Shown: positions 7,476 to 24,575 of the stretch, in pieces
Layout of the letters: every line of letters begins with the position of its first letter
Numbering within the stretch: position 1 is the stretch's first letter
IMG/VR virus record: IMGVR_UViG_3300028883_000003
Coordinates: 54,181 to 118,180 of that record
Length of the DNA: 64,000 nucleotides
From: a virus
Reading direction: 5' to 3' (one strand)
Translations under genes and position numbers: made by a program
The notes under the pieces: generated by a model
Databases searched by the model: none
What the model was told of the DNA's origin: nothing
Seen by the model: the letters and a program-made list of their open reading frames with translations, nothing else

Positions 7476-9617
7476 GTGGCTTTATACGGGAATCGAACCA
7501 GATATAAGACTGGAAAAAAACATAAAACTATTATTCGTTCATCCAAGCCAGTAAAAAACGTTGTTGCTGATGTAGATAAAAATATAGCTAATGCTGTAGC
7601 TATTCATACAGTTGTTAATTCGCGTACTGCTACGTCTGTTTTGACAACAGTTAATGATTATCAAAATCCTGACCTAAACAACAGAACAACAGTTGTTAAT
7701 TTGTCCAGACAGTTGCGTTCTATTGAGGGCATATGTGCTTCAGTAGCAGACCTGTTGGCAGATTTTGGTGTGACCAAAGGTGCCTATTATTCTGACAGCG
7801 AAGAATTAAAACTTATGTTAAACAAGTGGGCTAATTTTGTAAATGGTCCAATTGCTTTGTCCAAACAAAAAGGAGTGGTTTTTCCTGTTCCCGGAATAAG
7901 ATCATTGTCACGTAAAATTTTTGATGATTATATTACGGATGGTGATGCTGTCTTTACTTTGTTTTGGAAAAATGGTGTGAAGATGGACCCTAATGACACA
8001 GAGTCTTATTTCATACCTGTGTCCATAAAAACATTAGACACCGCTTCTTTGACAATTGATCCTGATTTAGCTAGTCTTGGTGTTGAGCGAATTGAGTTAA
8101 AATTCAGCAACGACACTTTAAAGCGTATTAAAGAACCTACTACGGATGCCGATAAGTTTTTAAGGGATAGTTTGCCTAAAGAGTGGTTAAAATTTATCAA
8201 TAGTGGTGAGTCAATTATTTTGGATGCAAACGTAACTTATCATTTAAAGCGTAATGGGAAAGATTGGAAGGCATGGGGAGAGCCTTTATTCTTAAAGGCA
8301 TTTAGTGCTGTTGCAGCTAAACGAAGATTACAAGCCGTAGACGATGCAACTATTGATGGTCTTATTAATCGTTTTACTGTTTTTAAGTTAGGTCTTGAAG
8401 ATAAAGATAAAAATCCGGCTTATCACATTCCTTCTAATGCTCGTACTCAAGCACTAATTGAAATTTTAACTAGTTCAAAAAGAACTAATGCTATCGTTTG
8501 GCCGGGTCCAGATTTGGATATTATGGATATTGGTCCAGACGGTAAAATTTTGGAGTTTGACCAAAAGTATAAACAAGCTGATATTGATATCTTAAGAGCC
8601 CTGCACGTATCTCCTCTTTTGATTGATGGAGGTTCTACTGGACAATCTGCCAGAGACTGGGCTGCTTTTGTGAGTACTGAAGTTGGACTTGATGCTATTC
8701 GCAATGAATTAGAGCAGACCTTTACACAAATCGGTAAAGAAATAGCATTGGCCAATAAAATGGATTATGAGCAGCTTTATTACAAATTTGATACCCAAAT
8801 GTTGAAGGATGAAAAAGCCGTAAGAGACTTTGCATTAAAAGTTTTTGAGCTTGGTGGTTTATCTGTGGAAACATTTGTTCGCACCATGGGGTATGATTTT
8901 AACACCGAGAAAACACTCAAAGAACGAGAGCAGTCAAGTGGTGTTTCTGATTTGTTTGTTAATCCTAATGTTCCGGGGTTTACTGGAAAAACACCAGATG
9001 GCGGCGATGGTCGTCCGCCGGGGAGTACTGATGACGAACCAAGGGAAGATAAAGATAAGTCTGCTGCTTCTAACCCGTTGGATAATGTTACTGTTTTTTA
9101 TGGGATGTACAAACGAACATTTGATTCTGTTATAAAAAACGTTAACTATCACTTGGCCATTAACCAAAAAAACATGGCCACTATGACTCTTATAGCAGGC
9201 TTTAACCAATTTAAACTTTTGGTTGATTCACAATTAAACAATACATTTTTGAAATATTCTGGTGGTAATGTAACGGGGTATTTGGAAAAGTTATTGCAGT
9301 GGAATGAAAATTATATTACTCGTTTTTATCAACAGGCAGCAACGGCTTTAGAAACAAGTCAAGAAGATTTCAATTTGTTGGCTAAAAAAAGCGATGAGCG
9401 TATTTTGATGTATGCACAGGAAAGTTTTAGAAAGGCCAAGTGGGTTGGTTTGATGGCATTGGCTAAACTAGAAGGCAAAACCAAAGCTATTTGGTCTTGT
9501 GATAACCCGCAAAATATAACATGTGTTGAAAACAATGGAAAATCTTTTGATTTGGATATTTTGGTTGGCATGTTTCCAAGTCATCCTAATTGCAAGTGCA
9601 CATTGGAGTTTATGTAA
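7476..9617 (+). CDS. Portal protein with a C-terminal Mu gpF/SPP1 gp7-like minor head domain
   Basis: Follows TerL; portal-like body ends at a low-complexity GRP linker (about aa 500-530); C-terminus W...C...NGKSF...PSHPNCKC. Confidence 0.8.
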   Translation: MALYGNRTRYKTGKKHKTIIRSSKPVKNVVADVDKNIANAVAIHTVVNSRTATSVLTTVNDYQNPDLNNRTTVVNLSRQLRSIEGICASVADLLADFGVTKGAYYSDSEELKLMLNKWANFVNGPIALSKQKGVVFPVPGIRSLSRKIFDDYITDGDAVFTLFWKNGVKMDPNDTESYFIPVSIKTLDTASLTIDPDLASLGVERIELKFSNDTLKRIKEPTTDADKFLRDSLPKEWLKFINSGESIILDANVTYHLKRNGKDWKAWGEPLFLKAFSAVAAKRRLQAVDDATIDGLINRFTVFKLGLEDKDKNPAYHIPSNARTQALIEILTSSKRTNAIVWPGPDLDIMDIGPDGKILEFDQKYKQADIDILRALHVSPLLIDGGSTGQSARDWAAFVSTEVGLDAIRNELEQTFTQIGKEIALANKMDYEQLYYKFDTQMLKDEKAVRDFALKVFELGGLSVETFVRTMGYDFNTEKTLKEREQSSGVSDLFVNPNVPGFTGKTPDGGDGRPPGSTDDEPREDKDKSAASNPLDNVTVFYGMYKRTFDSVIKNVNYHLAINQKNMATMTLIAGFNQFKLLVDSQLNNTFLKYSGGNVTGYLEKLLQWNENYITRFYQQAATALETSQEDFNLLAKKSDERILMYAQESFRKAKWVGLMALAKLEGKTKAIWSCDNPQNITCVENNGKSFDLDILVGMFPSHPNCKCTLEFM

Positions 9618-10015
9618 TGGAATTAGATCATACTAAAAGAGAGCAAGCAATACAGGAGTTAGAAAATATCAGTTTTGTTCGAGAGTCTGGCCAATACCAG
9701 ATGTCCACTGGACATATTATAACTAGGCTTTTACCAAATCTTTTAACATCCTCTTATTGCCAAATATTTGAATCAGTTTACAATGAGTATAGTAATAAAC
9801 CGAATGGAATGCCTGTTCATACTCATTCAGAATCGCGTGAAGTATTTTATCAATTAAAAGGGCAATCTAATTTTTCAGATGGTTCAGTTTTGAATCAGGG
9901 GGAAATAAAAATTATCGAAGCGGGGGAAGAGCACGGTGTTGTCTTAAGTGCTGGTTCAGCATTAGTAATTATAGCTCATCCACCCATTAAATCATTACCA
10001 AAAGGGAGTGACTAA
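9617..10015 (+). CDS. Cupin-domain protein
   Basis: PVHTHSESREVFYQLKG and GEIKIIEAGEEHGV cupin motifs; ATG at 9617 is coupled to the portal stop. Confidence 0.8.
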   Translation: MELDHTKREQAIQELENISFVRESGQYQMSTGHIITRLLPNLLTSSYCQIFESVYNEYSNKPNGMPVHTHSESREVFYQLKGQSNFSDGSVLNQGEIKIIEAGEEHGVVLSAGSALVIIAHPPIKSLPKGSD

Positions 10016-10374
10016 TGGTTGATTCTCAAGTTTTACTTAAGTTTCAAGAAGACATCAATGAATTGAGATCAAAGGTACAGGCTATAGAAATTCAAGTTGC
10101 ATTAATTCCGCCTGCTGAACTGTTGCAGTTTAAGGGAAAAGTATTACAGGCTTTAAAAACAATTAATGATGATATAAAAAAAATAAGTAGTGGATATGCA
10201 GAATTATCTAAAGCACAAGTGCAGCAAGATAGTTCTTTTATAGAAAAAATTGGTAAGCTGGACACTAGAATTGTGGTGTTGACTACTAAAGTAGCAATTT
10301 ATGCCACTATTTTGGCAACCATTCTTACTGTAGTTTTTAGTTCTTTGATTCAATATATGATAGGTAAATTTTAA
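10015..10374 (+). CDS. Holin-like / XhlA-like membrane protein
   Basis: Coiled-coil N-terminus plus a single C-terminal TM helix (VAIYATILATILTVVFSSLI). Confidence 0.5.
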   Translation: MVDSQVLLKFQEDINELRSKVQAIEIQVALIPPAELLQFKGKVLQALKTINDDIKKISSGYAELSKAQVQQDSSFIEKIGKLDTRIVVLTTKVAIYATILATILTVVFSSLIQYMIGKF

Positions 10375-13300
10375 ATGCACAAACTAATTGTTTTGTCAGC
10401 AATGTTTTTGGCTTTATTGTCGTTGTTTTTAGCTGTACCATCTTTGGCTACAGTAAATGTTTCGTTGACAATTAGTCAAGCAGATGCTACATATTTACGA
10501 GCCATACCAATTCAGGACTCGGCAGGTCGAGGAGTTTCTGAAAATTGGGGGTTAGCCCTAAATGCCACCAAAGATACTTTAATTTGGGTAGACTTATCTG
10601 GTGCTGCTCTTGGCTCCAGCATTTCTGCATCAGAGTTAGCTGATGAGGATTGGGGAGATGTCTCGATTTCCTCTGGCGTGGCTAGTGTTGAAGATTTAAC
10701 AATTTCTGGCGAAACCGCTGGTGATATTTTACATTTTAATGGTTCTAATTGGGTACGTTTAGCCATTGGTACTGTTGGCCAAGTGTTAACTGTCAATAGT
10801 GGAGAAACTGCTCCAGAGTGGGATGCTGCTGGTGGTGGAATTGCCGATCTTGCTACGCTATTTGCTTATTTCCATCGAGATTACTTTGATACTACTTCGG
10901 ATATTGTTGGTGATTCAATTACGGTTTTATTGGCTGACTCTGCTGGTATTTCTTTGAAGGCTGTTCAAGATGCTAGTGGCAATACAATAACAACTACTTA
11001 TGCCCCAGTTGCTACTCCTACGTTTACTACTTCAATTGGAATTGGTTCGACAACCATAACTGAAGCTGAATTGGCTGCTTTGGATAGTGTTGCCAGTGTT
11101 GACGGGTTGGCTATAACTGGTCAGACAGCTGGTGACATTCTGTGTTTCTATGGTGGAGCTTGGAATTTAGTAAATGCTGGTTCGGCTGGTCAGGTTTTGG
11201 AGATGCAAACTGGCGACACGACTGTTGGTTGGGGGACCGATGATGGTGCTGGTGCGGCCTCAATTGAAAACGATGTATATGGTTCTGGCTGGAACGATGA
11301 TATTACAAATGGTGCTTCTCAAAATGCTATTTATGATTATTTACATCAAATGGACACAGATGATGATGGTGATATTGATAATTTAGATGGTACTTTTATT
11401 GATGCTGGTGGAACTCAAGCATTAACAGGTAGCTGGGCTGCTGGTGATTTTAATATAACAGGTTTAAATAAGGTTGAAACTGATTCTATTCAGTTTACTA
11501 GCCACATGATTGTGGGAGCAACGGCAATTACTCCGACTGAAGTTAGCTATTTATCTGGCGTTACGTCGGCTATTCAGACTCAACTTGATGGTCAGGATGA
11601 AATCACGGAGTTAGGTTCTGGAAACTGGAAGGTTTATTACTCCAATGGTTCAGGAGCAATTATAGAATTAGCACTTGGTACTAATGGGCAGGTTTTAACT
11701 TCCAATGGTACTACATCTGCTCCCACCTTCGAAACCCCTTCTGGTTCTGGTCTTACATATTTTACCGAAGGTGATGATAACGATACTTCAACATTTACAG
11801 CCACTGCCCCGAATACTGTTATAGGTTTTGCCAGTTCAATAACTATGCAGGGAAACTCTGTTGATGGTGCTCAGCATATTACTGCGGACACTGTTTTTGC
11901 TGATGTCTATTTATCTACGGGTGATGTGTCTGGTAGTATTACACTTGAAGGAATTACTTCGGGTGGCTTTACCTTGGGAGTTCTCGATGTTGCTGGTAGT
12001 CTTGTTGATGTGTATCTTCCTACGGTAGATGGTACTCAAAACCAATTTTTGATGTCGGATTCCGGGGCCGGTACTGATAGTTTGGTGTGGGCAACAATAG
12101 ATTTTTCATTTGTTAGTGGAGAGATTGCCGATACTCAGATTGCTGATGGTGCTGTAGATGGTGGTTCAGGTGGCGAGATTGCCGATCACACAATTGATGC
12201 TAATGATATTAAGTGGACTTCCACACCGGGTTCGGGAGAAGATGATTATCTTGTTTCTTACGACTATGCCAGTGAAAGTTTTACAGCCGTCGCAGGAGGA
12301 GCGGGTGAAATTAACACAGCCTCTAACCAAGGAGCTGGTTATAAATTATATGAACAAAAAACAACTTATGATCTTGAATTCAAAACCATTACAGCGGGTA
12401 CTGGCATTTCTTTAGATACGGCCACTGCTAATCAGTTAAATATTTCGATTAGTTCAATTGATTCCACTTTGTTTAACCAAACTCAAACTGATGCCTATGT
12501 GAATTTATTAGTAAATGGTTATATTGACACTACAACTTTGGACACTATTGAATATTCCCATAAAGCAATTGCTGATGCGAGTGGTAACACGATAACAACC
12601 ACTTATGCTCCTATAGATAACCCGACGTTTACTACCGCAATTACGATAGGTTCGGCTGGTATAAGTGAAACAGAGTTGGAGATTTTGGATGGTGCCACTG
12701 TTACAACTACGGAACTTAATGTGCTTAGTGGCATTCCCGGAACCTTGACAGTTACCGAACTTGGGTATGTTGATGGTGTTACTTCATCAATACAAAATCA
12801 GATAAATGCAATTGCTGTGTTTTGGGACACTGTTACTAATGCTAATACTTTGCAAGCTACGGGTACTACTGATTCTGCATTTTTGCGAATAATAAATGAT
12901 GGTGACTCTGTTACTAGATTTAGTGCTCCTACTGGGGCTAAGTTTAGTTTTGAGGGAGACGGAATTTGGACAAATATACCATATTTAAGTTCGGATACAG
13001 TTGCTGCGGCTGTGTTTGATATGACTGGTGGTAAGATACTTGATGGTTCTGACGATATACAAAGTTTTTCTGCTGGGGACTTAGAGGTTTTGAGCAATTC
13101 TTTATATATAAAACAGGATGCTGTTGATACAACCGAATTAAATATGGGGCTATCTGGAATCTTTACTGGGAGTATTTTATATAGTGGTTCATTAGAAATT
13201 CCTAATAGTGACAACCCTACTACTGATGCATCCGGCGAACTTGCAGTTGACCAAAATGCTTCTGCTCTTGAGGTTTATGACAGTACACAAACAGTTTCTG

Positions 13301-13674
13301 TTTTAATACCGTTGTACAACCCTATTCAAGCTGCAATTGCTTCTCCTGATTTACTAGAGGATACCATTACTATTTTTCAGGTTAATTCTTTATTATATCC
13401 GTATGGTATTGGTTTGTTGCAGGCAGAATTAATTGTTAATGATACTGGAACCGCTTATTCAATTCAGCTTGAAGAATGGACAGGAAAGCAACACAGAGCA
13501 AGAGCGGGATATATAGATACACTAACAACAACATCTGATTCTTCTTATACGAGTTCTATTTCGTTTAATGATGGTGACTTTGCTACGGGTAACCAAATTA
13601 GAGCAATAGTGCCATCTACCGAAGTTGACGAAATATACCTTTCTTTAGTATTCTTTGTCAAAGAGGGTGATTAA
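10375..13674 (+). CDS. Signal-peptide-bearing tail/head-fibre-like protein (1099 aa)
   Basis: Sec signal MHKLIVLSAMFLALLSLFLAVPSLA; fibre repeats GxxGQVLT (x3), DASGNTITTTYAP (x2) and TE(L/V)xxL(D/S)GxT. Confidence 0.75.
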   Translation: MHKLIVLSAMFLALLSLFLAVPSLATVNVSLTISQADATYLRAIPIQDSAGRGVSENWGLALNATKDTLIWVDLSGAALGSSISASELADEDWGDVSISSGVASVEDLTISGETAGDILHFNGSNWVRLAIGTVGQVLTVNSGETAPEWDAAGGGIADLATLFAYFHRDYFDTTSDIVGDSITVLLADSAGISLKAVQDASGNTITTTYAPVATPTFTTSIGIGSTTITEAELAALDSVASVDGLAITGQTAGDILCFYGGAWNLVNAGSAGQVLEMQTGDTTVGWGTDDGAGAASIENDVYGSGWNDDITNGASQNAIYDYLHQMDTDDDGDIDNLDGTFIDAGGTQALTGSWAAGDFNITGLNKVETDSIQFTSHMIVGATAITPTEVSYLSGVTSAIQTQLDGQDEITELGSGNWKVYYSNGSGAIIELALGTNGQVLTSNGTTSAPTFETPSGSGLTYFTEGDDNDTSTFTATAPNTVIGFASSITMQGNSVDGAQHITADTVFADVYLSTGDVSGSITLEGITSGGFTLGVLDVAGSLVDVYLPTVDGTQNQFLMSDSGAGTDSLVWATIDFSFVSGEIADTQIADGAVDGGSGGEIADHTIDANDIKWTSTPGSGEDDYLVSYDYASESFTAVAGGAGEINTASNQGAGYKLYEQKTTYDLEFKTITAGTGISLDTATANQLNISISSIDSTLFNQTQTDAYVNLLVNGYIDTTTLDTIEYSHKAIADASGNTITTTYAPIDNPTFTTAITIGSAGISETELEILDGATVTTTELNVLSGIPGTLTVTELGYVDGVTSSIQNQINAIAVFWDTVTNANTLQATGTTDSAFLRIINDGDSVTRFSAPTGAKFSFEGDGIWTNIPYLSSDTVAAAVFDMTGGKILDGSDDIQSFSAGDLEVLSNSLYIKQDAVDTTELNMGLSGIFTGSILYSGSLEIPNSDNPTTDASGELAVDQNASALEVYDSTQTVSVLIPLYNPIQAAIASPDLLEDTITIFQVNSLLYPYGIGLLQAELIVNDTGTAYSIQLEEWTGKQHRARAGYIDTLTTTSDSSYTSSISFNDGDFATGNQIRAIVPSTEVDEIYLSLVFFVKEGD

Positions 13675-14939
13675 TGCGGTATATATTATATTTATTGTTA
13701 TTGTGTTTGCTTGTACCAACTATTGACGGTGCGGATTGGTCTTTTACTATTTCAGGGGATGATACCGCCGACGTTGACGATGCTGATTTATGGAGCACGT
13801 CATCTACGTTACTTCGTGGTGATACTTCTACAACGATGTGGGTAGGGACCAATAGTGGGGAACGTTGCGGTTGGGTTCATTTCGTAAATTTAGATGATAG
13901 TCTTGCCACATATCCGGGAGTTGTTGATTCTATCCTTTTGATTGCTGCTATTGGTGCAGGCGAGCCACTGATTGACACTACCGGGGATGACGATTCTCTC
14001 TGGTTACTTGTGTCCCCTGTCAGAAAAATCCCGGTTGAGGCAGAGGTTTCGTGGGACACTTGTAACAGCGGGGAGGAATGGACAACTGCTGGTGCTAAAG
14101 ATATTTCGGATGCGTATCAGACGGCCTTAGATACGACAGGCCCTATTGTGTTTGAAGACTATTCATCTCTTGACACTGTGCATTTATGGGTGGACCCACA
14201 AAGCTTACTGAACAGCAATAACGGCTGGATTATTCGCCCACTTTGCGAAGGTGATGGTAATATTCAGGTGGTTTTTGCAACAAGTGAGGATGGTAATCCG
14301 GGGTTTTCTTTGGTTGTTTACGGGCATACAGAGGCAATAGTAAGTGCAACAACAGATACAGTTTCTTATAGCTATAATGATGCTGGTTTTACAACAGTGT
14401 GGAGTACGACTGGTACGACTGGCAGGCTTGGAGAAACTGGGATGGGTGATTGGTATAAGTCCTGTATAAGGTTTACAAGTATTAATGTTGACACAAATGC
14501 CACGGTTGATTCGGCTTTTATATATGTTACCGGTGGTGGTTTAGGGTCGGGATTTGGGAGTATATATGCCAGAATTTATGCTGTTAATGTAGGCGATGCT
14601 GATCCATTTACTACAGCGGTATTTTATGATAGTTTGCTTACTAATCATAAAACGTCTGCATATGTTAATTGGACTACCGACTTCAATTGGTCACCGACTG
14701 GGTCAAATAAAAGTCCTGATATTAAAACTGTTGTACAAGAAGTATTTGATAGGCCTGATTGGGTTATGAGCAATGCTCTTGCTTTTTTGTTTGCTGCTAA
14801 TGGGACTACTACTACCAACGGCGAATATGTTGTTTACAAAACTTATGATGGTAGTGCGTCAACGGCACCATCGTTAGTTTTGTACTTAACTAACCCAGTA
14901 ACTGGACGTTCTACAATAATTCGAATTAATGCGGGCTAA
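13674..14939 (+). CDS. Secreted protein with two DNRLRE-like beta-sandwich domains
   Basis: Signal MRYILYLLLLCLLVPTIDG; DADL...WVG...GWVHF and ...SCIRFTSI...ATVDSAFI...APSLVL patterns. Confidence 0.6.
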   Translation: MRYILYLLLLCLLVPTIDGADWSFTISGDDTADVDDADLWSTSSTLLRGDTSTTMWVGTNSGERCGWVHFVNLDDSLATYPGVVDSILLIAAIGAGEPLIDTTGDDDSLWLLVSPVRKIPVEAEVSWDTCNSGEEWTTAGAKDISDAYQTALDTTGPIVFEDYSSLDTVHLWVDPQSLLNSNNGWIIRPLCEGDGNIQVVFATSEDGNPGFSLVVYGHTEAIVSATTDTVSYSYNDAGFTTVWSTTGTTGRLGETGMGDWYKSCIRFTSINVDTNATVDSAFIYVTGGGLGSGFGSIYARIYAVNVGDADPFTTAVFYDSLLTNHKTSAYVNWTTDFNWSPTGSNKSPDIKTVVQEVFDRPDWVMSNALAFLFAANGTTTTNGEYVVYKTYDGSASTAPSLVLYLTNPVTGRSTIIRINAG

Positions 14940-14940
14940 T

Positions 14941-16401
14941 ATGAAACTTTTTTTTATTTTGTTTTTTATGCTGTTGTTTCCTTCGTTGCTATTTGCAGAA
15001 GTTGACACGGTTTATGATACAATTTATACTTCCACAGATGACGCCCAATTTTTTACTAGTTTGGTAACGGATAGCAATTACTTACGAGCCGGTCAAGCTT
15101 CTAGCGGGTATTTTTTTAACGCTTTGTTACGTTTTGACAATTTACCTATGAAACAAGGTGAGTATCTTGTTAGTGTTGATTTATACTTGTTTGATTTGGC
15201 GTCAGACACAACCATTGGAGAGCCAAGTTTAATAATTAAGTTAGAAGACACAGGCAATTCAACAACTTTTAGTGATTCGGCTGATTATGTTAGTAGGCAT
15301 TGGACAACTGATAGTGTAAATTGGACTGTTACAAGGCCGGAGGGGCTTTATGGTTGGGAATTTGACCCTCGTTACAACAATTATACTGCTGTAACGTCTT
15401 TAGCTCCTTTGTTTCAGACTATTGTGGATAGAGCAGATTTTGATTCTAGTCAGGCAATAACAGTTCGAATTTTTGATAGGCCTTTATATGAGGATGCTTA
15501 TACTACTTTTTATTCCTTTGATGGTGATTCTGCAAAAGCCCCATATTTAGTTATCGTTAGGGTAATACCAAGCACTGATAGTTGTAAAACATACATATGT
15601 ATGTGTGACACAACCTCAATAAGAGACACCTATATACCAGATGGTGAAACTGTTTCTGATACAATGCGGGTTATTTTTTATGTTGCATGCACTCCCGATA
15701 GTGTGCCAAAAGTGTCAGATTCAATTATTGCAGCAGCAGTGGACTCTCTAAATGGTAGTCGACTCTTAGGAAGAGCAAAAATTTATATAAAGTATGATAT
15801 TTTACATATTTATTCTTCTTATTTTACAAACCACGTAATAAATTCTATTGATGCTGAAGCGTTTAAGGGGCTGTATAGTGTACATTTAGATTCTGCGGCA
15901 GCTCACTATTCTGTGGATATAAATGTTGGGGTTTACACGTTTGGTACGTACCCGTGGGACGCGGCTTCTAATCCTTACGATGGCACTTATGGAGCGTGGA
16001 ACGGTGCAACCCCACAAAGAATTTCACATGAGCTTTTGCATACGTTTGGGCTTATGCATACAAACATTGGTACTTTTAGTGAAGTGCTTGGCCCACCTAT
16101 AGATGATGATTTTTTATGTGGCCCATGTTGGGAGTACCCTGTTGAGTATGGACAAAGTGATTCTGTTAGAAATGAGATTGGGGATAAATGCTCAGATACT
16201 GATCCTAGCCCAAAAGTAACACCGGGATTTGTGTGTGGGAGTGATGCATATGATAGTACAAAGTCTGATTCTTTGATTATGCGATCTGTACCACACTCTA
16301 CGCTTGGATTGGCAATTACAGCACAACAGGCTGGTAGAGTACGATGTCATACAAGGTATTGGTTTCCGGGTTGGTATATTTTTATGGGAGAAACACAATA
16401 A
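14941..16401 (+). CDS. Secreted DNRLRE-like domain plus metzincin (M43/pappalysin-like) metalloprotease
   Basis: Signal MKLFFILFFMLLFPSLLFA; HELLHTFGLMH zinc motif; GDKCSDT; Met-turn SLIMRS; many Cys. Confidence 0.75.
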   Translation: MKLFFILFFMLLFPSLLFAEVDTVYDTIYTSTDDAQFFTSLVTDSNYLRAGQASSGYFFNALLRFDNLPMKQGEYLVSVDLYLFDLASDTTIGEPSLIIKLEDTGNSTTFSDSADYVSRHWTTDSVNWTVTRPEGLYGWEFDPRYNNYTAVTSLAPLFQTIVDRADFDSSQAITVRIFDRPLYEDAYTTFYSFDGDSAKAPYLVIVRVIPSTDSCKTYICMCDTTSIRDTYIPDGETVSDTMRVIFYVACTPDSVPKVSDSIIAAAVDSLNGSRLLGRAKIYIKYDILHIYSSYFTNHVINSIDAEAFKGLYSVHLDSAAAHYSVDINVGVYTFGTYPWDAASNPYDGTYGAWNGATPQRISHELLHTFGLMHTNIGTFSEVLGPPIDDDFLCGPCWEYPVEYGQSDSVRNEIGDKCSDTDPSPKVTPGFVCGSDAYDSTKSDSLIMRSVPHSTLGLAITAQQAGRVRCHTRYWFPGWYIFMGETQ

Positions 16402-16402
16402 A

Positions 16403-17182
16403 ATGAACAAAAGCTTTTTTGTGTGTTTATTGTTTTTTTTGATAATTTTTACAGAATTTTCACTTGGTTATGATTCTGCAATAGTTTCGGTTAGTAACGA
16501 CGTGTCTTTAATGGCCAGAGCCGATGCTAATTATACATTCGGTTTGGGGTCTGTATTAAACGTTTATGAAGATGGTATAGGTGCTAATAGAATGACATCT
16601 TTAATAAATATTAATCCAGATTCAATACCTAGTGGTGTTATTCGTCAAGTCAAATTATTTTTGTATAGTTCTACAAATCAGTTAACAACTTTGTACCCAA
16701 GGCTTGATAGTGTAACTGTGGAGGCCCATCGAGTAAAAGAGAATTGGGATTATTATGACACGATTGGCACACTTGCTTCAGGATATAATTTTTCTCCTAG
16801 TTGGCATTATAGAGACACGACTGATATCACAGACACTTTTCCCGTATTGGGTGGAACTCCTTGGTCTGACACCGCTGCTTTTTACCCAACGTCTTCGTAT
16901 ATATTACCAGAAGGCTCAGTAGTGGTGGATTCTTCTTCTGACGCAGAATTTGAACTTACATTGTCCCCTCATACAATGACATATTATAGAGATAATCCAG
17001 ATTTTTGTAATGGGTGGGTACTTACAGCACAGAGCACAGGTAACCAAGGGGAACATTGGAAGAGGCAGTTTTATAGCTCTAAATCGCAAGAACCCTCTAA
17101 GCAACCTTATTATTTAATTGTATATGATGGGTCTGCCCCAAAATTCAAAAATGTTGATGTGTCAGGGGACATAGAATTTTAA
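16403..17182 (+). CDS. Secreted DNRLRE-like domain protein
   Basis: Likely start at 16403, MNKSFFVCLLFFLIIFTEFSLG; ...VEAHRVKENWD...NGWVL...FYSSKS...QPYYLI pattern. Confidence 0.6.
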   Translation: MNKSFFVCLLFFLIIFTEFSLGYDSAIVSVSNDVSLMARADANYTFGLGSVLNVYEDGIGANRMTSLININPDSIPSGVIRQVKLFLYSSTNQLTTLYPRLDSVTVEAHRVKENWDYYDTIGTLASGYNFSPSWHYRDTTDITDTFPVLGGTPWSDTAAFYPTSSYILPEGSVVVDSSSDAEFELTLSPHTMTYYRDNPDFCNGWVLTAQSTGNQGEHWKRQFYSSKSQEPSKQPYYLIVYDGSAPKFKNVDVSGDIEF

Positions 17183-17213
17183 TATGGCGTACAATTTTAA
17201 TGGAGTAGAATAA

Positions 17214-19082
17214 ATGAATAGGTTAGTTTTTGTTTTAGTTTTTGTTTTGTTGTTGTGTGTGAGTCCAGTTGTGGCAAGGAATTTAGTGACACTTACTTCT
17301 GGCGATTTACCATACAGTGCCAGTTCTAACGATAGTATTCAGATTGATGGCAATCACATCACATCCAATGGCACAGCCATAAACGTGGAGAGTGTGAATA
17401 ATGTTTATTTTGATTTTGGCACAGACACACTTGAGTACGGGGCTAATGGTGGCAATAACGAATATGGGTTGCGTTTTCAAAACGCCTATAACTGTACTGT
17501 TAATGGTGGTACGATTATGCGTGCCGTTGGACCGGCTTCGACAGACGGTGAGAGTAATCACACTATTTATATGCACGGAACTTGTTATGGGCTAACCTTC
17601 AACGACGTAGACCTTATCACCGACGGATACAACGGACACTGCGTTCTTGGTTATGGTCCTCACTATTCAATAAATTTTGATGGTGGAACATGGCGAAGTG
17701 ATTCTAGAAGTTTTTCCGATAGACATAATTATACCGGGGCTGTTGCATGGTTGGGAACACCCGGTAGCGGAGGTGATTACGCATATTGGATTCATGGTGT
17801 TTCTATTGTCGATGGACCAGCACAGGGAATAATAACCATAAGTGGCCGCACCATTATTGATAGCTGTGATATTAGCACCGATCATATAAATACTGGACCA
17901 ACCGGCTCCGACGGGAACCAATATCTTATTCTATTAACTGGTTGTACCAACCCAACATCCGTCACTAATTGTACACTTGTCAGCGGCAGTGATAGGGGAG
18001 GGAGTCGGGGAGTTCTTATAGAAAATTCAAACGGTACAGCAGATGAAAGAATAGTAGTACGTAACAATTATTTTGACATACACAACGGTCCTGACAGCGA
18101 AGGGGGGATGGGTGTTTATGGTTCGTGTAGAATAATTAGATTGCGGACGCTTCATTCCGGTTCTCAAAGATGGTCGAGTTATATAGATATTCGTAAAAAT
18201 ACTGTATATGGGACATCAGATTTTAATGAGAGCACAACACATATAGGCCGAGAGGTGATTGGCATTGACTGTAACATGGCGTCTCAAGGATTAGGTGGGG
18301 CACACCATATTAGGGTTGATAGCAATAAGGTTTATATGAGAACTTTAGGGACCAATGTGTATAACAAGGCAGCCGCTCTATACTCATATGTTAATCCCGA
18401 TACAACGGGGATGTCTTGTTCTTACAATGAGTTTTATGGTTCAGATGTTGTTGTCCGACTTGCTGATGGGGGGGAAGATGGTAACTCTGGCAACGGGATT
18501 GGCTGTACTGAATTTTTTATGCATAACAATATTTTAGGTTTTCTTGATACAACGGGCAATGACTCCCTTACGTATGACACTGGATACACTACGTGGAGTG
18601 TTGCCGTTGGTAACGGTGACGCGACCCCAATTGCTGTCGACAACGTATCACGGGACGCAACATATCTCAATGGAGCATCTGACACTGATATTTTATTTAG
18701 GGTTGCCCCCGGCCCCACCGATATAGCTATGCAAAAGACCGTTGGTGTCTATGTTAAAGATTCCGATGCTGACCCTATTGTTGGAGCTACTGTTCGGCTT
18801 ATAGATGACGGCGGTTCTGTGGTTTGGAGTAATATAACCGACGTAAACGGCTACGTGGCTGAGGCTGCTACTTATTTATATGATTCCGTTGGTACTTCGG
18901 TTGATAGTAATTACAACCCCTTTACACTTAGGGCGATCTACGGCACCGACTCCACTGATGTTTCCCGTATTGTGGCATGTAATAATGGGGATACAACAGT
19001 AGTATTGGATATTGAAGGGGAGCCAAATATTGTTCCAGTTAATATTTCAGGTAAAGTGGTAATTAAAGGAAAGAAAAAATGA
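17214..19082 (+). CDS. Secreted right-handed beta-helix (pectin-lyase-like) protein with a C-terminal Ig-like domain
   Basis: Signal MNRLVFVLVFVLLLCVSPVVA; G/N-rich beta-helix coils (IVVRNNYF, IRKNTVY); VKDSDADPIVGATVRL...TDVNG domain. Confidence 0.65.
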   Translation: MNRLVFVLVFVLLLCVSPVVARNLVTLTSGDLPYSASSNDSIQIDGNHITSNGTAINVESVNNVYFDFGTDTLEYGANGGNNEYGLRFQNAYNCTVNGGTIMRAVGPASTDGESNHTIYMHGTCYGLTFNDVDLITDGYNGHCVLGYGPHYSINFDGGTWRSDSRSFSDRHNYTGAVAWLGTPGSGGDYAYWIHGVSIVDGPAQGIITISGRTIIDSCDISTDHINTGPTGSDGNQYLILLTGCTNPTSVTNCTLVSGSDRGGSRGVLIENSNGTADERIVVRNNYFDIHNGPDSEGGMGVYGSCRIIRLRTLHSGSQRWSSYIDIRKNTVYGTSDFNESTTHIGREVIGIDCNMASQGLGGAHHIRVDSNKVYMRTLGTNVYNKAAALYSYVNPDTTGMSCSYNEFYGSDVVVRLADGGEDGNSGNGIGCTEFFMHNNILGFLDTTGNDSLTYDTGYTTWSVAVGNGDATPIAVDNVSRDATYLNGASDTDILFRVAPGPTDIAMQKTVGVYVKDSDADPIVGATVRLIDDGGSVVWSNITDVNGYVAEAATYLYDSVGTSVDSNYNPFTLRAIYGTDSTDVSRIVACNNGDTTVVLDIEGEPNIVPVNISGKVVIKGKKK

Positions 19083-19096
19083 AAGAAAGAACACTA

Positions 19097-19678
19097 ATGA
19101 AAACATTATTTATCTTTTTGTGTTTGTCACTTTTACCAGTTATGCTAAATGCTGATGCCACATATAGTTATGGTGGTGTTTTTTATTACAATGGCAATCT
19201 GACTACGCCAGATTCTTTGCATGTGTATGTGTCTTATCAGCCGTCTGGAGATACTGTCAGTTATGTATCCCTTCCTGATTCGGCAGTATGGGATACAACT
19301 ATAGATACAACTGATGTTACTGACAATTATGCAATATTAAGTTACCATATATATTTTGGGACTAATTTGTTAATTACTCAAGAAACTATTAATTTACGAT
19401 TAGATACAAGTAGTATTTCTCCACAAGTATACGCAATGACAGGTGATTCTGTAAAGACAGCGATAGAAGCACAAGGTAGTCAATTATGGGGCTTATCAGT
19501 TTTTTGGGGTACGTTGGATAGTTCACTTATGCTGATGTACCCACTTGATGGTACTACCCCAAAGGACAGTGTTCAAATTACAGACAGTTCTGGTACAGTT
19601 TTGATGTCTATAATTTATAAGCACAGTAATACAAATACAGTATTAGACTCAACTATTGTTTATCATAGGGTTCCATAA
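19097..19678 (+). CDS. Secreted hypothetical protein, D-S/T rich
   Basis: Likely start at 19097, MKTLFIFLCLSLLPVMLNA signal peptide. Confidence 0.65.
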   Translation: MKTLFIFLCLSLLPVMLNADATYSYGGVFYYNGNLTTPDSLHVYVSYQPSGDTVSYVSLPDSAVWDTTIDTTDVTDNYAILSYHIYFGTNLLITQETINLRLDTSSISPQVYAMTGDSVKTAIEAQGSQLWGLSVFWGTLDSSLMLMYPLDGTTPKDSVQITDSSGTVLMSIIYKHSNTNTVLDSTIVYHRVP

Positions 19679-19881
19679 TGGCTTTTACTTGGGATGACAG
19701 GTTTGATGCTAAGCCGGGGACGTTTGATCCTAGGTTTCAAGGAGGAGAAACAACTTCTTCTAGTTTGACTATAGGCACTTTAACTATGGTTGGGGTAGTT
19801 ATAAACTCAAGGGCGGCTTGTTCTTACGTTACTAATTTAACTATATATAGATCAGAAATAGGTTCTGTTTCTGTGTATTAA
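19678..19881 (+). CDS. Small hypothetical beta-rich protein
   Basis: 67 aa, coupled to the upstream stop; no signal peptide. Confidence 0.55.
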   Translation: MAFTWDDRFDAKPGTFDPRFQGGETTSSSLTIGTLTMVGVVINSRAACSYVTNLTIYRSEIGSVSVY

Positions 19882-19890
19882 GGAGTTAAT

Positions 19891-20307
19891 ATGTCCTCAT
19901 CTGTTCAATATTTGGATGAAGATAATAGTTACAAATTTGTTTTTTCTTTAACAAATTCAGAAACTGGTGCTAAAATTGCATTGGCTTCCATCTCTTCGGT
20001 GCAGTGTACTGAATTTTATTATAATCCTAATTTGTTGACTAGTGACAGAAATCACTTGGCTACAATAAACAGTAGATATAACCAAAACGTAAAGAATGCC
20101 AATGATGTAACTATAACTTCTTCTGGCACAATAAGTTGGGTGGTTCAACCTGAAGATACTGTGTTCCTTAATTCTTCAAATGCCAATGCCGAAGAGGAAT
20201 TACATATTGCTCTTTTTATGTGGACCTATGGAACTGGTGGAAGCAAACAAAACTCACATACATTTTTTAATTATGTTCGCCATGTACCTTATATTTCGAG
20301 TATGTAA
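19891..20307 (+). CDS. Ig-like/BppU-like putative virion adaptor protein
   Basis: 138 aa, beta-strand pattern, AGGAG ribosome binding site; no signal peptide. Confidence 0.45.
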   Translation: MSSSVQYLDEDNSYKFVFSLTNSETGAKIALASISSVQCTEFYYNPNLLTSDRNHLATINSRYNQNVKNANDVTITSSGTISWVVQPEDTVFLNSSNANAEEELHIALFMWTYGTGGSKQNSHTFFNYVRHVPYISSM

Positions 20308-20726
20308 TGTTTAAATTTGGCAAAAATTCTGAAAAAAAATTAGAAAAAGTTCACTTTTTACTACAAAAAGTTTTGAAAAGGGCGATAATAAGTACAAGAG
20401 TGGATTTTTCTATTGTGTCTGGATATAGGGATAAGGAGATGCAAGATTCTTTATTTCGAAGTGGGCACAGTAAATTACGATGGCCAAATAGTAAGCATAA
20501 TTCTGACCCATCATTAGCCGTTGACATAGCGGTTTATAGAAATGGTAAGTTGGATTGGCAGGACTTAAATAGCTATTATTATTTGGCCGGGTTAATTCAA
20601 GCTATCGCCGATAGTATGAATATTACTTTGAGATTTGGGTTGGATTGGGATAGAGATGGTGATTTTAATGACCAAACTTTTTTAGATGCGGGGCATATAG
20701 AGTTAGTTAATGAGGACACAGAATGA
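20307..20726 (+). CDS. Endolysin, peptidase M15 family (L-Ala-D-Glu peptidase-like)
   Basis: SGYR...Q...SKHN...AVDI...LRFGLDW...DAGHIEL zinc-peptidase motifs. Confidence 0.88.
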   Translation: MFKFGKNSEKKLEKVHFLLQKVLKRAIISTRVDFSIVSGYRDKEMQDSLFRSGHSKLRWPNSKHNSDPSLAVDIAVYRNGKLDWQDLNSYYYLAGLIQAIADSMNITLRFGLDWDRDGDFNDQTFLDAGHIELVNEDTE

Positions 20727-22204
20727 AATTAAAAGGTAAACGGCGTAAATTTGTAATGACGGCTATTTCGGGTAATGAGGAAAAATGGGTTAAACAGTGG
20801 GCTGAATCTGTAATGAAGGCAAATCCAGATTTAGTTATTATTAATCTGACCCAGTATGACGACAATTCAGAGGAACTATTTAGAAAACATATACCAGAAG
20901 ATAAATTAAAGCTGGTTAAATATCCTTGGAAAAAAGACTTTAGCGAAGCTAGAAACCATACTCTGGACTTAGTTCCAGATGATACAGACATGGTAATGTT
21001 TTTGGATTTAGACGAAGTATTTACTCCAGAGTCTTACTCCGCTTTGGAAGAAGTTTTACATAATACTGAGTTAGATATCCAAATAATGACAACTATTTAT
21101 AATAAAGTGAGCAAGGAGTCAATGCTTGCTAGTCTTTATTACCCTAGGTTGTTTCCGTGGCGTAATCGTAAGGGTGAGTTACTTCACCCTCATTTTGAAA
21201 GTGAAGTACACAATCAATTAGTGTACCCATCTGGCGTCAAACAGGAGGCGATACGTAGCAAAATTGGAATTTTTCATTATGGCTACGCATTGGACGCCAA
21301 AGCTATGGCGGCTAAGCATAAGCGTTCGGAAGAGCTTATACGACAACAACTTAGCAAAAATCCCGATGACTACTTCGGTCATTTAAACTTGGCTCAATTA
21401 TTGCGGGCTAAGGGGGATGCTAAAGGAACAGCTAAACACGCTCAAAAAGTTGTTGATTTGGTAAGTCCAAAGGTTAATTCTGGTGACCCAAGAATGCTTC
21501 ATGCCTATTTAATGGCCAAAGAACAATTGGCTACTGCTTATTTGGTTTTAAAGAGATTTCAGGAAGTTATCAAAGTTTCTGAGGAAGCTCTGGAGAAAAA
21601 GCCGGATTACTTAGACGCACAGATGAATTTAGCTAATGCTTATTTGGAACTAAGAGATTTAGATAAAGCAGAATTTTGGTTAAAGAGATATTTGTTTGTG
21701 CGTAGTCAGTATGATGAATTAAGGGATAATACTAACCTAATCTTAAATCATCTTAATTCAACTTTTATGGCTTTATATCATTTGGGCTCTATTGAAATAG
21801 CCAGAGGAAATATAGACAAGGCTAAAGATTACTTTGAAAGAAGCTATAAGGCTGAGCCAAAGTTTGCAGATGTATTTATCAGATATCTTGATTGTGTGCG
21901 TAGATTAACTAATAAAATAGATTCTGAATTAGTTAATAAATATATTGTTGAAAATTCTGATAAAGCTCATATGCTATATGAGTATTTTGGTGATTTAGAA
22001 TTAGAGCGTTCAAATATTGAAAATGCAAAGTTTAATTATTACCAAGCGTATTATTTAAACGAAAAAAGTGAAGAGCACGGTAGAATAGAGAGTAAATGGA
22101 AATCCATAGAGGATGCCTTTGGTGGTGTTTCACAGATATTTTTTAATTCTGCTGGTAAACACCAAGAGTTAAAACAACGATTAGGAGACAAAAATGGTTC
22201 CTGA
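20723..22204 (+). CDS. GT2 glycosyltransferase with TPR repeats
   Basis: WKKDFSEARNHTL, FLDLDE (DxD), EVHNQL and HYGY, followed by TPR-like helices. Confidence 0.88.
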   Translation: MKLKGKRRKFVMTAISGNEEKWVKQWAESVMKANPDLVIINLTQYDDNSEELFRKHIPEDKLKLVKYPWKKDFSEARNHTLDLVPDDTDMVMFLDLDEVFTPESYSALEEVLHNTELDIQIMTTIYNKVSKESMLASLYYPRLFPWRNRKGELLHPHFESEVHNQLVYPSGVKQEAIRSKIGIFHYGYALDAKAMAAKHKRSEELIRQQLSKNPDDYFGHLNLAQLLRAKGDAKGTAKHAQKVVDLVSPKVNSGDPRMLHAYLMAKEQLATAYLVLKRFQEVIKVSEEALEKKPDYLDAQMNLANAYLELRDLDKAEFWLKRYLFVRSQYDELRDNTNLILNHLNSTFMALYHLGSIEIARGNIDKAKDYFERSYKAEPKFADVFIRYLDCVRRLTNKIDSELVNKYIVENSDKAHMLYEYFGDLELERSNIENAKFNYYQAYYLNEKSEEHGRIESKWKSIEDAFGGVSQIFFNSAGKHQELKQRLGDKNGS

Positions 22205-24032
22205 GATTACAGATAAATATATTATCATCAGGATCACCGACCCCGATTCTTTTATAGCAGAGTCTTTTAAAACCATTTGGGTAGATAAAGATGCTGGTAT
22301 TCAAGAGGTTATGGGTAAAAAACAAAAGTCAAATACTAACGAGGTTCAGTCTTATATTTTTGATAAAAATTTGTGGACCATAGAAGATGCCCGTGCGTGG
22401 GTCAGGTCTATGAAGCATGAACAAAAATCAACAGTAGCTGAACAATTTGGTAAAAAGCGTACATTTGTCACAGCTAAAGTAGCTCTTTGTGCACAGAAAC
22501 CCAATTTATCAGTGGGCACAAAAATTGTACCATTAACGAAAGAAGTGTTTGACAAAAACCAATCAGAAGCAGCTCTAAACGACAAATACTTTTTCTATGT
22601 GGAAGGAGTACATGAGGGGAAAAATCTGAATGGTGATGTTTTTACCCGTGATGAGCTTGTAAAAACTTACAAGTCCGCAGGTTACCAACTTATTGACTGG
22701 GAACATGTTAGAGATCAGGTTATTGGTTTTTCTTTAGAATCAGAGCTTATTTCTAATGGTGATGAGCCAATGGCTGTAGCTTTTTCTGGTATTTTAAACA
22801 GGCTTTCTCCATATATGCAAATAGAAGAACGTGTTGGTGATACGGTTACCAGTCGTGATGAACTGATTCGCCAACGGTTTTTTGAAGATAAATTAGCAGT
22901 TAGTATGGAGTGCTTATTTGATAGCATGAGATGTGCAGAATGTGGTTATCATACAGATGATGCTTTTGATTTTGAATTTCATGTTATGATGAATCATAGT
23001 AATATCTTGGAATCTGGTCAACGAGTGGGTAGAGAATTAGTTGGGGTTGATTTTACTGGCTGGGGTATTATAGAATTCCCGGCAGATCGACAAGCTTTTG
23101 TTGTTTCTTTACGTACTTCTGATGATGGTACTATCAAGGATATTGTTAGTGCTGATATAGAAGAACAGTATGGGAAGCTGGCAGAGAATATTATGTTCTC
23201 AAAACGGGTAATTGAGGCTTCTCCAACTGACATTTTTATAAAAAATGACGAAAAAATGACATTTGCTTCAGAAATTAGTACAAAAATTAACAAAACTACC
23301 GATAATAAAGTAGATAAAAAAGAAAATAAACAAATTGATGATATAGTAGGAGGAAAACAGATGTTTAATCTTGCAGAAAAAATATCTGCTGATATGAAAC
23401 TTTCTGACGTTTTTGTGGTGGCACAACGAGTGCTTCGTGACTTACAGGGAGATAAAGCATTAGACGCTGAACAGGCAGAAGCTTTTATTTCTGAGTTAGG
23501 CGAAGTGGTTAAAGCTACAATCACCGCAGATAAGTTCAAAGTAGAAAATATTTATACCTTAACTGACGAGCAGAAGCTCAATGCTATTGATGCTGCTCGC
23601 CAAGAAGAGCAGGATATTGCAAAGACAGCATTGTCCGAAGCTACTTCCAAATATGAAGCTTTAGAGGCAAGTAAGGGTGAAGTTGAAGCCCAGTTAGCTA
23701 CTATCCAGAAAGAATTGGATGAATTAAAGACTGCTGAAGCTAAGAAAGAAACCGATAAGCAGGTTGATACATTTATGGAAGAACTCAAGACAGCAGGAGT
23801 AGTTTTATCCGCTGGTTCTTTTGAGACGGGTATTCGTAGTATGGTTGAGGCCAATATTGGCAATCAAGAGGGACTTTCAACCCTTCGTTCTGAGCTTATT
23901 GCCTCATTCAAACAGTCAGTGTTGACTAATGCTTCCGATAACGCAGGTGCTTCTGCTGGCAACCCCGGCGGAAATGATGCATCTACGTTAGAGAGTAAGC
24001 TCAAAAAAGTTAAAGAAGAACATAATAAATAA
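22194..24032 (+). CDS. Prohead protease/scaffold fusion (SPbeta YonD-like)
   Basis: HEGKNLNGDVF, IDWEH, AVSMEC and FTGWGII...PAD, then an acidic coiled-coil scaffold; lies upstream of the capsid genes. Confidence 0.75.
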   Translation: MVPEITDKYIIIRITDPDSFIAESFKTIWVDKDAGIQEVMGKKQKSNTNEVQSYIFDKNLWTIEDARAWVRSMKHEQKSTVAEQFGKKRTFVTAKVALCAQKPNLSVGTKIVPLTKEVFDKNQSEAALNDKYFFYVEGVHEGKNLNGDVFTRDELVKTYKSAGYQLIDWEHVRDQVIGFSLESELISNGDEPMAVAFSGILNRLSPYMQIEERVGDTVTSRDELIRQRFFEDKLAVSMECLFDSMRCAECGYHTDDAFDFEFHVMMNHSNILESGQRVGRELVGVDFTGWGIIEFPADRQAFVVSLRTSDDGTIKDIVSADIEEQYGKLAENIMFSKRVIEASPTDIFIKNDEKMTFASEISTKINKTTDNKVDKKENKQIDDIVGGKQMFNLAEKISADMKLSDVFVVAQRVLRDLQGDKALDAEQAEAFISELGEVVKATITADKFKVENIYTLTDEQKLNAIDAARQEEQDIAKTALSEATSKYEALEASKGEVEAQLATIQKELDELKTAEAKKETDKQVDTFMEELKTAGVVLSAGSFETGIRSMVEANIGNQEGLSTLRSELIASFKQSVLTNASDNAGASAGNPGGNDASTLESKLKKVKEEHNK

Positions 24033-24061
24033 ACGCATCTTTCGCATATAGGAGGATATAG

Positions 24062-24565
24062 ATGCTTAAGTTTCAGCCAATCGTTTATAACGATTCTGAC
24101 TTACGTGCGTTTAAATACGTTGGTACAAGTTCCTGTTTAGAGGGTCAGTTCGTTAAGGCCACTTCTGGAACTTCGCAACATATAATGACAGCTACTTTGT
24201 ACAATGGTACGAAGGGCTCGATTGCTACGGTTCCCCTTGCTGTTGGTTCGGGTACTGTGGCCATTTTCAAAGATCAGATTTTCCCGATTTTCCGTGAGAA
24301 CCCTGATCCTGAAACTGTTGCTGCTACCATCGCTAAAAACGATTACGTAGTTGGTTTTCGTATGACTCCGGGGAACGAATTTCAGGTTCATAAATCTGTT
24401 ACTGAATCTGGATATGCTTCCACATTTACTGCTGTAGGCGGAAACGTCTGTCTTGGTAGTACCGGTAAATTGACCTATACAGGGGCAAAGAACTCTACTG
24501 GTTATGTAGTTGGTATCTGCCTTGGAACCTTCAATGCGGCTTGGGTCCGTGTTAGAGTTATCTAA
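24062..24565 (+). CDS. Capsid decoration/cement protein
   Basis: 167 aa, beta-rich, between protease and major capsid gene; strong AGGAGG ribosome binding site. Confidence 0.6.
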   Translation: MLKFQPIVYNDSDLRAFKYVGTSSCLEGQFVKATSGTSQHIMTATLYNGTKGSIATVPLAVGSGTVAIFKDQIFPIFRENPDPETVAATIAKNDYVVGFRMTPGNEFQVHKSVTESGYASTFTAVGGNVCLGSTGKLTYTGAKNSTGYVVGICLGTFNAAWVRVRVI

Positions 24566-24575
24566 GGAGTAAACA

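Follow-up and report, generated by a model that had tools for sequence, protein, structure and literature searches.

Six consecutive leader-bearing genes in a phage head operon

The window analysed here comprises the last 64 kb (64,000 nucleotides) of a 118,180-bp contig from a marine-sediment metagenome (IMG/VR record IMGVR_UViG_3300028883_000003, positions 54,181 to 118,180 of that record), and coordinates are given as window positions. The contig derives from a tailed phage, for which no cultured close relative was found. Inside its head operon we located a cassette of six consecutive open reading frames (ORFs) on the + strand, starting at 10375, 13674, 14941, 16403, 17214 and 19097, exactly where the initial annotation had placed a row of six Sec-exported proteins. 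A related phage, L003, whose capsid and decoration proteins are 81% and 89% identical to those of the window, carries the same cassette in the same gene order. The six products, P1 to P6, are as follows.

10375-13674, + strand: P1, 1099 aa, fibre-like by sequence and shared fibre modules, Sec leader
13674-14939, + strand: P2, 421 aa, leader, DNRLRE-like N-domain followed by an extracellular repeat domain at residues ~250-415
14941-16401, + strand: P3, 486 aa, leader, 9 Cys, DNRLRE-like N-half followed by an M43-like metzincin
16403-17182, + strand: P4, 259 aa, leader, DNRLRE-like; start backed by the L003 orthologue
17214-19082, + strand: P5, 622 aa, leader, 11 Cys, predicted right-handed beta-helix (a polysaccharide-acting fold) with a small C-terminal beta-sandwich
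19097-19678, + strand: P6, 193 aa, leader, no recognisable family

At the N-terminus of each of the six proteins, a basic n-region is followed by a hydrophobic core of 14-20 residues, and positions -3 and -1 hold small residues; by inspection and a simple heuristic this corresponds to the classical Sec/signal peptidase I type. The predicted cleavage sites are SLA|TVNVS in P1, IDG|ADWSF in P2, LFA|EVDTV in P3, SLG|YDSAI in P4, VVA|RNLVT in P5 and LNA|DATYS in P6. All five complete L003 orthologues carry leaders, the sequences of which have diverged while their architecture was kept, and the starts of the L003 proteins match the internal starts at 14941, 16403 and 19097 rather than the longest-ORF starts at 14929, 16304 and 19079. 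The row of Sec leaders proposed initially was thus confirmed. Across the 118-kb genome, a crude leader heuristic flagged 11 of 171 ORFs, and a run of six leader ORFs did not occur once in 200,000 shuffles. All six genes are under purifying selection, with ratios of nonsynonymous to synonymous substitution rates (dN/dS) of 0.08-0.24.

Two other routes were considered and rejected. A lipoprotein (signal peptidase II) reading does not fit, as the Cys residues found in several leaders sit in the middle of the core with hydrophobic residues after them and the orthologues have no lipobox. Secretion of P1-P6 by the type IX secretion system (T9SS) was dismissed as well, since the sorting tail is missing: a C-terminal sorting domain of the TIGR04183 type was found in none of the six proteins at E<=1. 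Because they lack this tail, P1-P6 are predicted to stay in the periplasm of a diderm host until lysis. Disulfide bonding of P3 and P5, with their 9 and 11 Cys residues, is plausible in such a compartment.

O-glycosylation sequons are enriched and conserved in the leader-bearing proteins

The sequence D-(S/T)-(A/I/L/V/M/T) is the O-glycosylation motif of Bacteroidota and is glycosylated only in non-cytoplasmic proteins; in the general Bacteroidota system the glycan is transferred in the periplasm, and the motif is sufficient, even across species (PMC12871550, a 2025 review). We counted this sequon in the mature cassette proteins and obtained expected counts from composition-preserving shuffles. 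The six mature proteins contained 69 sequons against 23.1 expected (z=10), a three-fold excess, and every cassette protein was enriched singly (z 2.8-7.4), with 22 sequons in P1, 10 in P2, 15 in P3 and 8 within 174 aa in P6, where they are densest. In contrast, the count was flat in 12 leaderless structural proteins, including the S/T-rich tail-tip giants (26 sequons, 29.8 expected). Six control motifs were also flat in the same comparison, namely the reversed motif, the E-, N- and G-substituted motifs, D-(A/G)-hydrophobic and D-(S/T)-non-hydrophobic.

The same enrichment was seen in the leader proteins of other phages, with z values of 12.6 in L003, 10.5 in L008, 8.1 in L006 and 8.2 in L015, while in the cellular homologues described below the sequon was enriched less or not at all. 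In P2-P6, 37 of the 47 sequons share an alignment column with an L003 sequon (all 10 of those in P2 among them), against about 11 expected if the three residues were each retained independently at 41-56% identity. Such a signature is hard to explain unless the proteins reach the periplasm and the sites get used. Export of the six proteins is well supported, because the leaders are kept despite sequence turnover and because a periplasm-specific sequon is enriched only in leader proteins, at conserved positions. From these conserved and enriched sites we infer, on good grounds, that the cassette proteins are glycosylated. Both export and glycosylation had been put forward initially, and the leader and sequon data speak for both.

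Predicted folds and relatives of the cassette proteins

None of the six cassette proteins gave an above-threshold family match in Pfam, PHROGs or NCBIfam. PDB sequence searches (P1, P3, P5 profile) and IMG/VR scans with P2 and P6 returned nothing, and megablast of the cassette against cultured phages gave no match. In tblastn against cultured phages P5 had no match and P1 only two short module matches. We therefore relied on module sharing, remote homologues and structure models. They upheld three of the kinds of cargo named in the initial annotation, namely phage-fibre repeats, a Cys-rich metzincin and a beta-helix; for the fourth, DNRLRE-like sandwiches, the matches are near full-length but remain below the curated cut-off.

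P1 shares short modules, 57-76% identical, with proteins that carry the tail-fibre domains PF18454, PF12789, PF13884 and PF03906 (Mtd_N, PTR, S74 and T7 fibre domains). Four of its five best matches have leader-like N-termini, and the matches are located in phage virion or lysis-adjacent positions. The C-terminal 280 aa of P1 are 40% identical to the L003 orthologue, and no enzyme domain was recognised in the protein. P2 is 55% identical to its L003 orthologue. Its N-domain shares 36% identity with an L008 leader protein of 246 aa that scores 23 bits against DNRLRE, and its C-domain occurs in more than 3000 large proteins, often in 3-6 copies and alongside Ig, cadherin, fn3 and deacetylase domains. 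The DNRLRE model (NF033679; cut-off 34 bits) gave 21.9 bits for P4, 28.9 for the L003 orthologue of P4, 14.7 for P3 and 23.0 for P0154, the homologue of the P2 N-domain, all of them near full-length and weak.

The metzincin assignment of P3 rests on its putative zinc site, HELLHTFGLMH, which fits HExxHxxGxxH, and on transitive homology to the M43 family. Over 273 residues, P3 shows 27% identity (E 2e-21) with P0003, a protein that does pass PF05572; P3 itself had no direct Pfam match even at E<=10. The relative of P3 is an M43 peptidase with PKD domains. P6 is 90% identical to its L003 orthologue with a dN/dS of 0.08, and both its synonymous (dS) and nonsynonymous (dN) rates resemble those of capsid and decoration proteins. 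A single-sequence AlphaFold model of mature P6 reached a predicted local distance difference test score (pLDDT) of 45, and a search of the ESM Atlas with P6 gave no usable match.

For P5, the AlphaFold2 model (mean pLDDT 68; >85 across most of residues 30-160) is a right-handed parallel beta-helix, into which the mature N-terminus leads directly. Foldseek with this model retrieved the HK620 tailspike, RbmB, fucoidan and K1 lyases and AlgE4 (E 6e-5 to 2e-3), at low template modelling scores of about 0.3; model and matches together are consistent with the beta-helix fold. Cellular homologues of P5 (26-45% identity, 650-1270 aa) come from metagenome-assembled genomes (MAGs) of Zixibacteria, Ignavibacteriales and Deferrimicrobium. 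They have a leader, fn3 domains and a T9SS-type or dockerin-like tail, and they sit repeatedly inside exopolysaccharide (EPS) loci with three GT4 glycosyltransferases, a deacetylase and acetyltransferases. These homologues align with the C-terminal region of PorZ at E 1e-5 to 7e-12; one of the set, P0010, reaches 20.5 bits against TIGR04183. The phage copies of P5 stop after the small beta-sandwich, without the sorting tail. Within the phages, P5 of the window is 54% identical to its homologue in L008 and 49% to that in L006, two unrelated phages of higher GC content, versus 37-41% to the syntenic L003 orthologue. P5 is thus nearer to the copies in unrelated phages than to its positional counterpart, which indicates horizontal allele shuffling of the kind typical of receptor-binding genes.

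The cassette occupies a variable slot between the portal gene and a lysis block

On the + strand, a TerS-like gene, the large terminase, the portal, a cupin-like ORF and TM119 precede P1-P6, which are followed by s67, c138, an endolysin, a glycosyltransferase (GT2-TPR), a 612-aa ORF, a decoration-like protein (167 aa), the capsid (331 aa) and the tail module. The tail module is of siphovirus type, with a 1599-aa tape measure and tip proteins of 1356 aa and 1816 aa, both leaderless. The neighbours that bear on the cassette are listed here.

5655-7466, + strand: large terminase
7476-9617, + strand: portal (phrog_2739), 57-58% identical in the phages L001 and L002; conserved left flank of the slot
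10015-10374, + strand: TM119, by sequence a 119-aa coiled-coil protein with a single C-terminal transmembrane helix, immediately 5' of the cassette
19678-19881, + strand: s67, small, without a leader
19891-20307, + strand: c138, small, without a leader; conserved right edge of the slot
20307-20726, + strand: endolysin (phrog_465, E 5e-40), without a leader
20723-22204, + strand: GT2-TPR glycosyltransferase, leaderless and cytoplasmic by sequence, between the endolysin and the scaffold-like gene; kept in L001 and L003
22194-24032, + strand: 612-aa ORF, C-terminal half coiled-coil, scaffold-like

The cassette had been described as translationally coupled between the portal and a prohead protease. 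All gene junctions from the cupin-like ORF through the 612-aa ORF measure -11 to +31 nt, and several are TAATG overlaps. Direct flanking does not hold, as the cupin-like ORF and TM119 intervene upstream and s67, c138, the endolysin and GT2-TPR downstream; and for the 612-aa ORF, the presumed protease, family searches returned no protease match. Such tight junctions make co-transcription of the cassette with the head genes plausible. A scan for sigma-70 promoters and terminators, which excludes promoters of the Bacteroidota type, found sites at chance level. We rejected a moron, that is, an autonomous insert with its own promoter and terminator, on the basis of these junctions and of signals that do not rise above chance. 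A search of sequencing runs matched one DNA run, probably the source sample, and no RNA runs. TM119 had no Pfam or PHROG family match; it may have a holin-like or membrane-partner role. Small single-transmembrane coiled-coil proteins also lie 5' of leader-bearing genes in L002, L006 and L008.

The interval from the portal to c138 forms a hypervariable slot, bounded on the right by the conserved c138/endolysin/GT2-TPR block. In L002 it contains two leader proteins, one of which is a repeated beta-helix. Beyond L003, a survey for similar cassettes in other phages, as anticipated initially, found leader-bearing, sequon-rich cassettes in three other lineages (L006, L008 and L015), directly upstream of the endolysin in each. 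In L008 and L006, the stretch between a giant polyvalent protein and the endolysin/holin genes encodes one small membrane protein plus three leader proteins, of which one resembles the N-domain of P2 and another P5; a fourth protein of ~305 aa with an N-terminal hydrophobic segment follows the three. L008 is temperate, and its cassette lies near the integrase. L015 has five leader proteins in a row, one P1-like and one a beta-helix, directly upstream of an amidase, a holin and a spanin-like gene. In L016 (1-24572), the capsid gene is immediately followed by genes for two fibre-like proteins with leaders, of 1523 and 926 aa. Cassettes of exported fibres and enzymes thus recur, as L006, L008, L015 and L016 show, and move among phages whose hosts use the sequon.

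A probable FCB-group host that falls outside classical Bacteroidetes

More than 99% of Bacteroidetes species have Gln at +1 of over 48% of their leaders, with a mean of 71% (the Q-rule; PMC5837995). Gln at +1 was found in none of the six window leaders and in none of the five L003 leaders, so that this hallmark of a Bacteroidota host is lacking. Shine-Dalgarno-like sites are common in the operon (junctions 9590-24576), which is atypical for classical Bacteroidetes. Given the broken Q-rule and these sites, the host is probably a diderm of the Fibrobacterota-Chlorobiota-Bacteroidota (FCB) group outside classical Bacteroidetes with sequon-directed O-glycosylation. The nearest cellular homologues of P5 are those from the Zixibacteria, Ignavibacteriales and Deferrimicrobium MAGs. 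Sequon-directed O-glycosylation may accordingly extend to other FCB lineages.

Destination of the exported proteins

Structural proteins of tailed phages normally fold in the cytoplasm without signal peptides, and textbook morphogenesis is cytoplasmic throughout. The reading that we favour, although with confidence short of even, is that the six genes form a late-expressed, Sec-exported module for host-surface recognition and degradation, of which at least P1, P5 and P6 join the virion. The proteins would cross the inner membrane of the FCB-group diderm host, would be O-glycosylated and disulfide-bonded in the periplasm, and would be held there, the T9SS tail of the cellular homologues being missing. 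Once holin and endolysin open the envelope, the exported proteins would meet particles built in the cytoplasm, and P1 (fibre-like), P5 (tailspike-like) and P6 (highly conserved), at the least, would attach to them as accessory appendages shielded by glycans. The metzincin and the lectin-like members of the set might ride along or act free on host EPS and surface glycoproteins. Docking onto virions after holin action is a tentative part of this proposal, again with confidence short of even. The full two-compartment scheme, in which heads and tails are cytoplasmic, the fibre, tailspike and adaptor are exported, disulfide-bonded and O-glycosylated before joining after holin action, the virion wears host-made glycans, and the module is mobile between head- and tail-module positions of unrelated FCB-group phages, is a little more tentative still.

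Several observations favour attachment to the virion. P1 is of the fibre type, P5 of the tailspike type, and the conservation of P6 resembles that of a capsid protein; here the cassette is part of the virion operon, and in other phages it takes the usual place of fibre genes. There is also a precedent in the cultured Cellulophaga phage phi18:3 (Pachyviridae, NC_021794), the host of which belongs to Bacteroidota. Its gp085-gp087, large late proteins from three adjacent genes that lie upstream of the endolysin gene as in the cassettes described above, begin with classical Sec leaders, and their database entry lists them as virion structural or tail proteins 'based on experimental MS/MS proteomics'. 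Unlike the window proteins, none of which has Gln at +1, the phi18:3 proteins have leaders that obey the Q-rule, and they belong to a podovirus with the genes outside the head module. As there is no sequence homology, the precedent holds by analogy only. We found no discussion of the significance of these leaders in the literature.

A number of points weigh against the favoured reading. P1-P6 are known here from their genes alone, which do not tell a location in the particle. The tail module is complete and leaderless, with its 1356-aa and 1816-aa tips, and the cassette is therefore dispensable for the basic tail. L001 and L002, with portals 57-58% identical to that of the window, keep the flanks around unrelated cargo, which marks the content of the slot as accessory, and the L001 slot holds a leaderless distant homologue of the L002 beta-helix together with a 1046-aa repeat protein. 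The homologues of the P2 C-domain, P3 and P5 are cellular extracellular proteins rather than virion parts, and no anchor domain or binding partner was identified for the cassette proteins. Finally, gp085-gp087 of phi18:3 are not sequon-enriched, and tblastn against phi18:3 with every cassette protein as query found no match.

The strongest alternative, which we consider unlikely though a serious contender, is that the proteins are exported for oxidative folding and glycosylation and released at lysis as a set of free exoenzymes and adhesins that strip EPS, matrix and surface glycoproteins and never enter the particle. As soluble, long-lived enzymes and lectins they would let the progeny escape debris and reach neighbouring cells. 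The cellular relatives fit this well: P5 homologues are proteins with a leader and a T9SS tail in EPS biosynthesis loci, the relative of P3 is an M43 peptidase with PKD domains, and giant extracellular proteins that contain the P2 C-domain number in the thousands. The P5 fold is as close to the biofilm-dispersal lyase RbmB and to alginate epimerases and lyases as to tailspikes, and the complete, leaderless tail and the swappable content of the slot also speak for free proteins. However, P1, with 1099 aa of fibre modules and no enzyme domain, has no obvious use as a free protein and could compete with virions for receptors, and P6 is conserved like a capsid protein. The position of the genes in a virion operon or at fibre sites and the phi18:3 MS/MS precedent also suit virion parts better.

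Remodelling of the envelope of the infected cell is improbable. Under this explanation the proteins would aid lysis, as a spanin substitute or a breaker of the S-layer and EPS, or would destroy or mask receptors, so that superinfection is blocked and progeny are kept from sticking to debris. The cassette does abut the endolysin and small membrane proteins in four phage lineages, no recognisable spanin pair adjoins the endolysin of the window, and proteins without the T9SS tail should stay periplasmic. Moreover, temperate L008 has the same cassette type near the integrase, the usual place of conversion genes. In the window phage, however, there is no room for a separate promoter, and hence these are not lysogenic-conversion genes. 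The size of the proteins, the fibre modules and the numerous, conserved glycosylation sites suggest a long-lived extracellular function, and rapid exchange of alleles is what one would sooner expect of receptor-binding genes.

It is very improbable that the N-terminal segments are membrane tethers or assembly tags rather than export signals, with cytoplasmic maturation and a motif excess that is a structural by-product: cytoplasmic folding is usual for tailed-phage structural proteins and the leader proteins of L016 and L002 are without specific sequon enrichment, but all six segments show the n/h/c pattern with small -3/-1 residues, which the orthologues keep, the sequon excess is confined to leader proteins of five phages while beta-rich leaderless fibres have none, the reversed and E-, N- and G-substituted motifs are not enriched, and the cellular homologues are exported. 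A small probability, below that of envelope remodelling and above that of non-exported segments, is left for destinations beyond these four.

Comparison with known systems and implications

Phage tailspike and tail-fibre depolymerases such as that of HK620, together with soluble depolymerases, resemble the cassette in the beta-helix of P5, the fibre modules of P1, the fast allele exchange and the lysis-adjacent position in other phages. Known tailspikes are leaderless and fold and assemble in the cytoplasm. P5 differs from them in having a leader, and no N-terminal particle-binding domain was recognised in it. The beta-helix enzymes of EPS loci (from Zixibacteria, Ignavibacteriales and other MAGs, and V. 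cholerae RbmB by fold) are homologous and share the leader, but the phage copies end sooner and have no sorting tail. The classical leader proteins of late phage operons, lambda Lom and Bor, T5 Llp, T4 RI and the spanins, are likewise phage-encoded Sec substrates made from structural or lysis operons or close to them, but are single and small and act on the envelope of the infected cell. In contrast to these, the cassette comprises six large fibre- or enzyme-like proteins with about 3000 residues in total.

Compared with Bacteroidota O-glycosylation substrates, the cassette has the same motif, but in phage-encoded late proteins and at three to four times the expected number. In huge phages, signal-peptide proteins (sortase substrates and outer membrane proteins) have been proposed to reach the host envelope (bioRxiv 10.64898/2026.10.24.761521); these belong to other families, hosts and contexts, and the preprint has neither fibre-like cargo nor glycosylation sequons. 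Our literature search found no published description of tailed-phage fibres or depolymerases that bear leaders and are rich in sequons.

Fibre- and depolymerase-like late proteins with conserved leaders and positionally conserved O-glycosylation sites occur in this phage and in four or more further lineages. If they are carried on virions, phages of a large, mostly uncultured bacterial group would build their host-recognition gear across two compartments and display host-type glycans, which would matter for host-range prediction, stability and immune or lectin recognition. Annotation pipelines for virion proteins, in which a signal peptide counts against a structural role, would then be misled. 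If they are free enzymes instead, the phage would encode an unusually elaborate secretome for dismantling sediment EPS. Either way, the sequon signature is an inexpensive marker, readable from sequence alone, both of exported phage proteins and of hosts that O-glycosylate at sequons, and the missing Q-rule suggests that such hosts include bacteria outside classical Bacteroidetes.

Additional genes in the window and related phages

The 1046-aa protein of the L001 slot (L001:17373-20513) is leaderless and consists of ~30 tandem repeats of ~20 residues of the form 'sQxIWnVk'. L003 carries an HNH endonuclease gene (L003:7899-8630) between the endolysin and GT2-TPR genes that is missing in the window, and the head module of L016 also holds RGP and GT2 glycosyltransferases and a radical S-adenosylmethionine (radical-SAM) enzyme. 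A 135-aa ORF at 46299-46706 on the - strand, just past the gene for the 1816-aa tail-tip protein and opposite to it in orientation, has a leader ending in ...HVNC; its product may be a lipoprotein and might act as a Llp- or Cor-like receptor blocker.

GT2-TPR could have a cytoplasmic protein-glycosylation role. Upstream of the window, on the - strand, the genome also contains a nucleotide-sugar/glycan cluster (L017:4517-12260; genome 44.5-52.3 kb). It encodes an SIS isomerase, a cytidylyltransferase-PfkB kinase fusion and an NAD epimerase, in a heptose-nucleotide-like pathway, together with a GLF-like flavoprotein, a GT1 glycosyltransferase and methyltransferases. This cluster might tailor the glycan on the exported proteins, or the surface glycans of the host.

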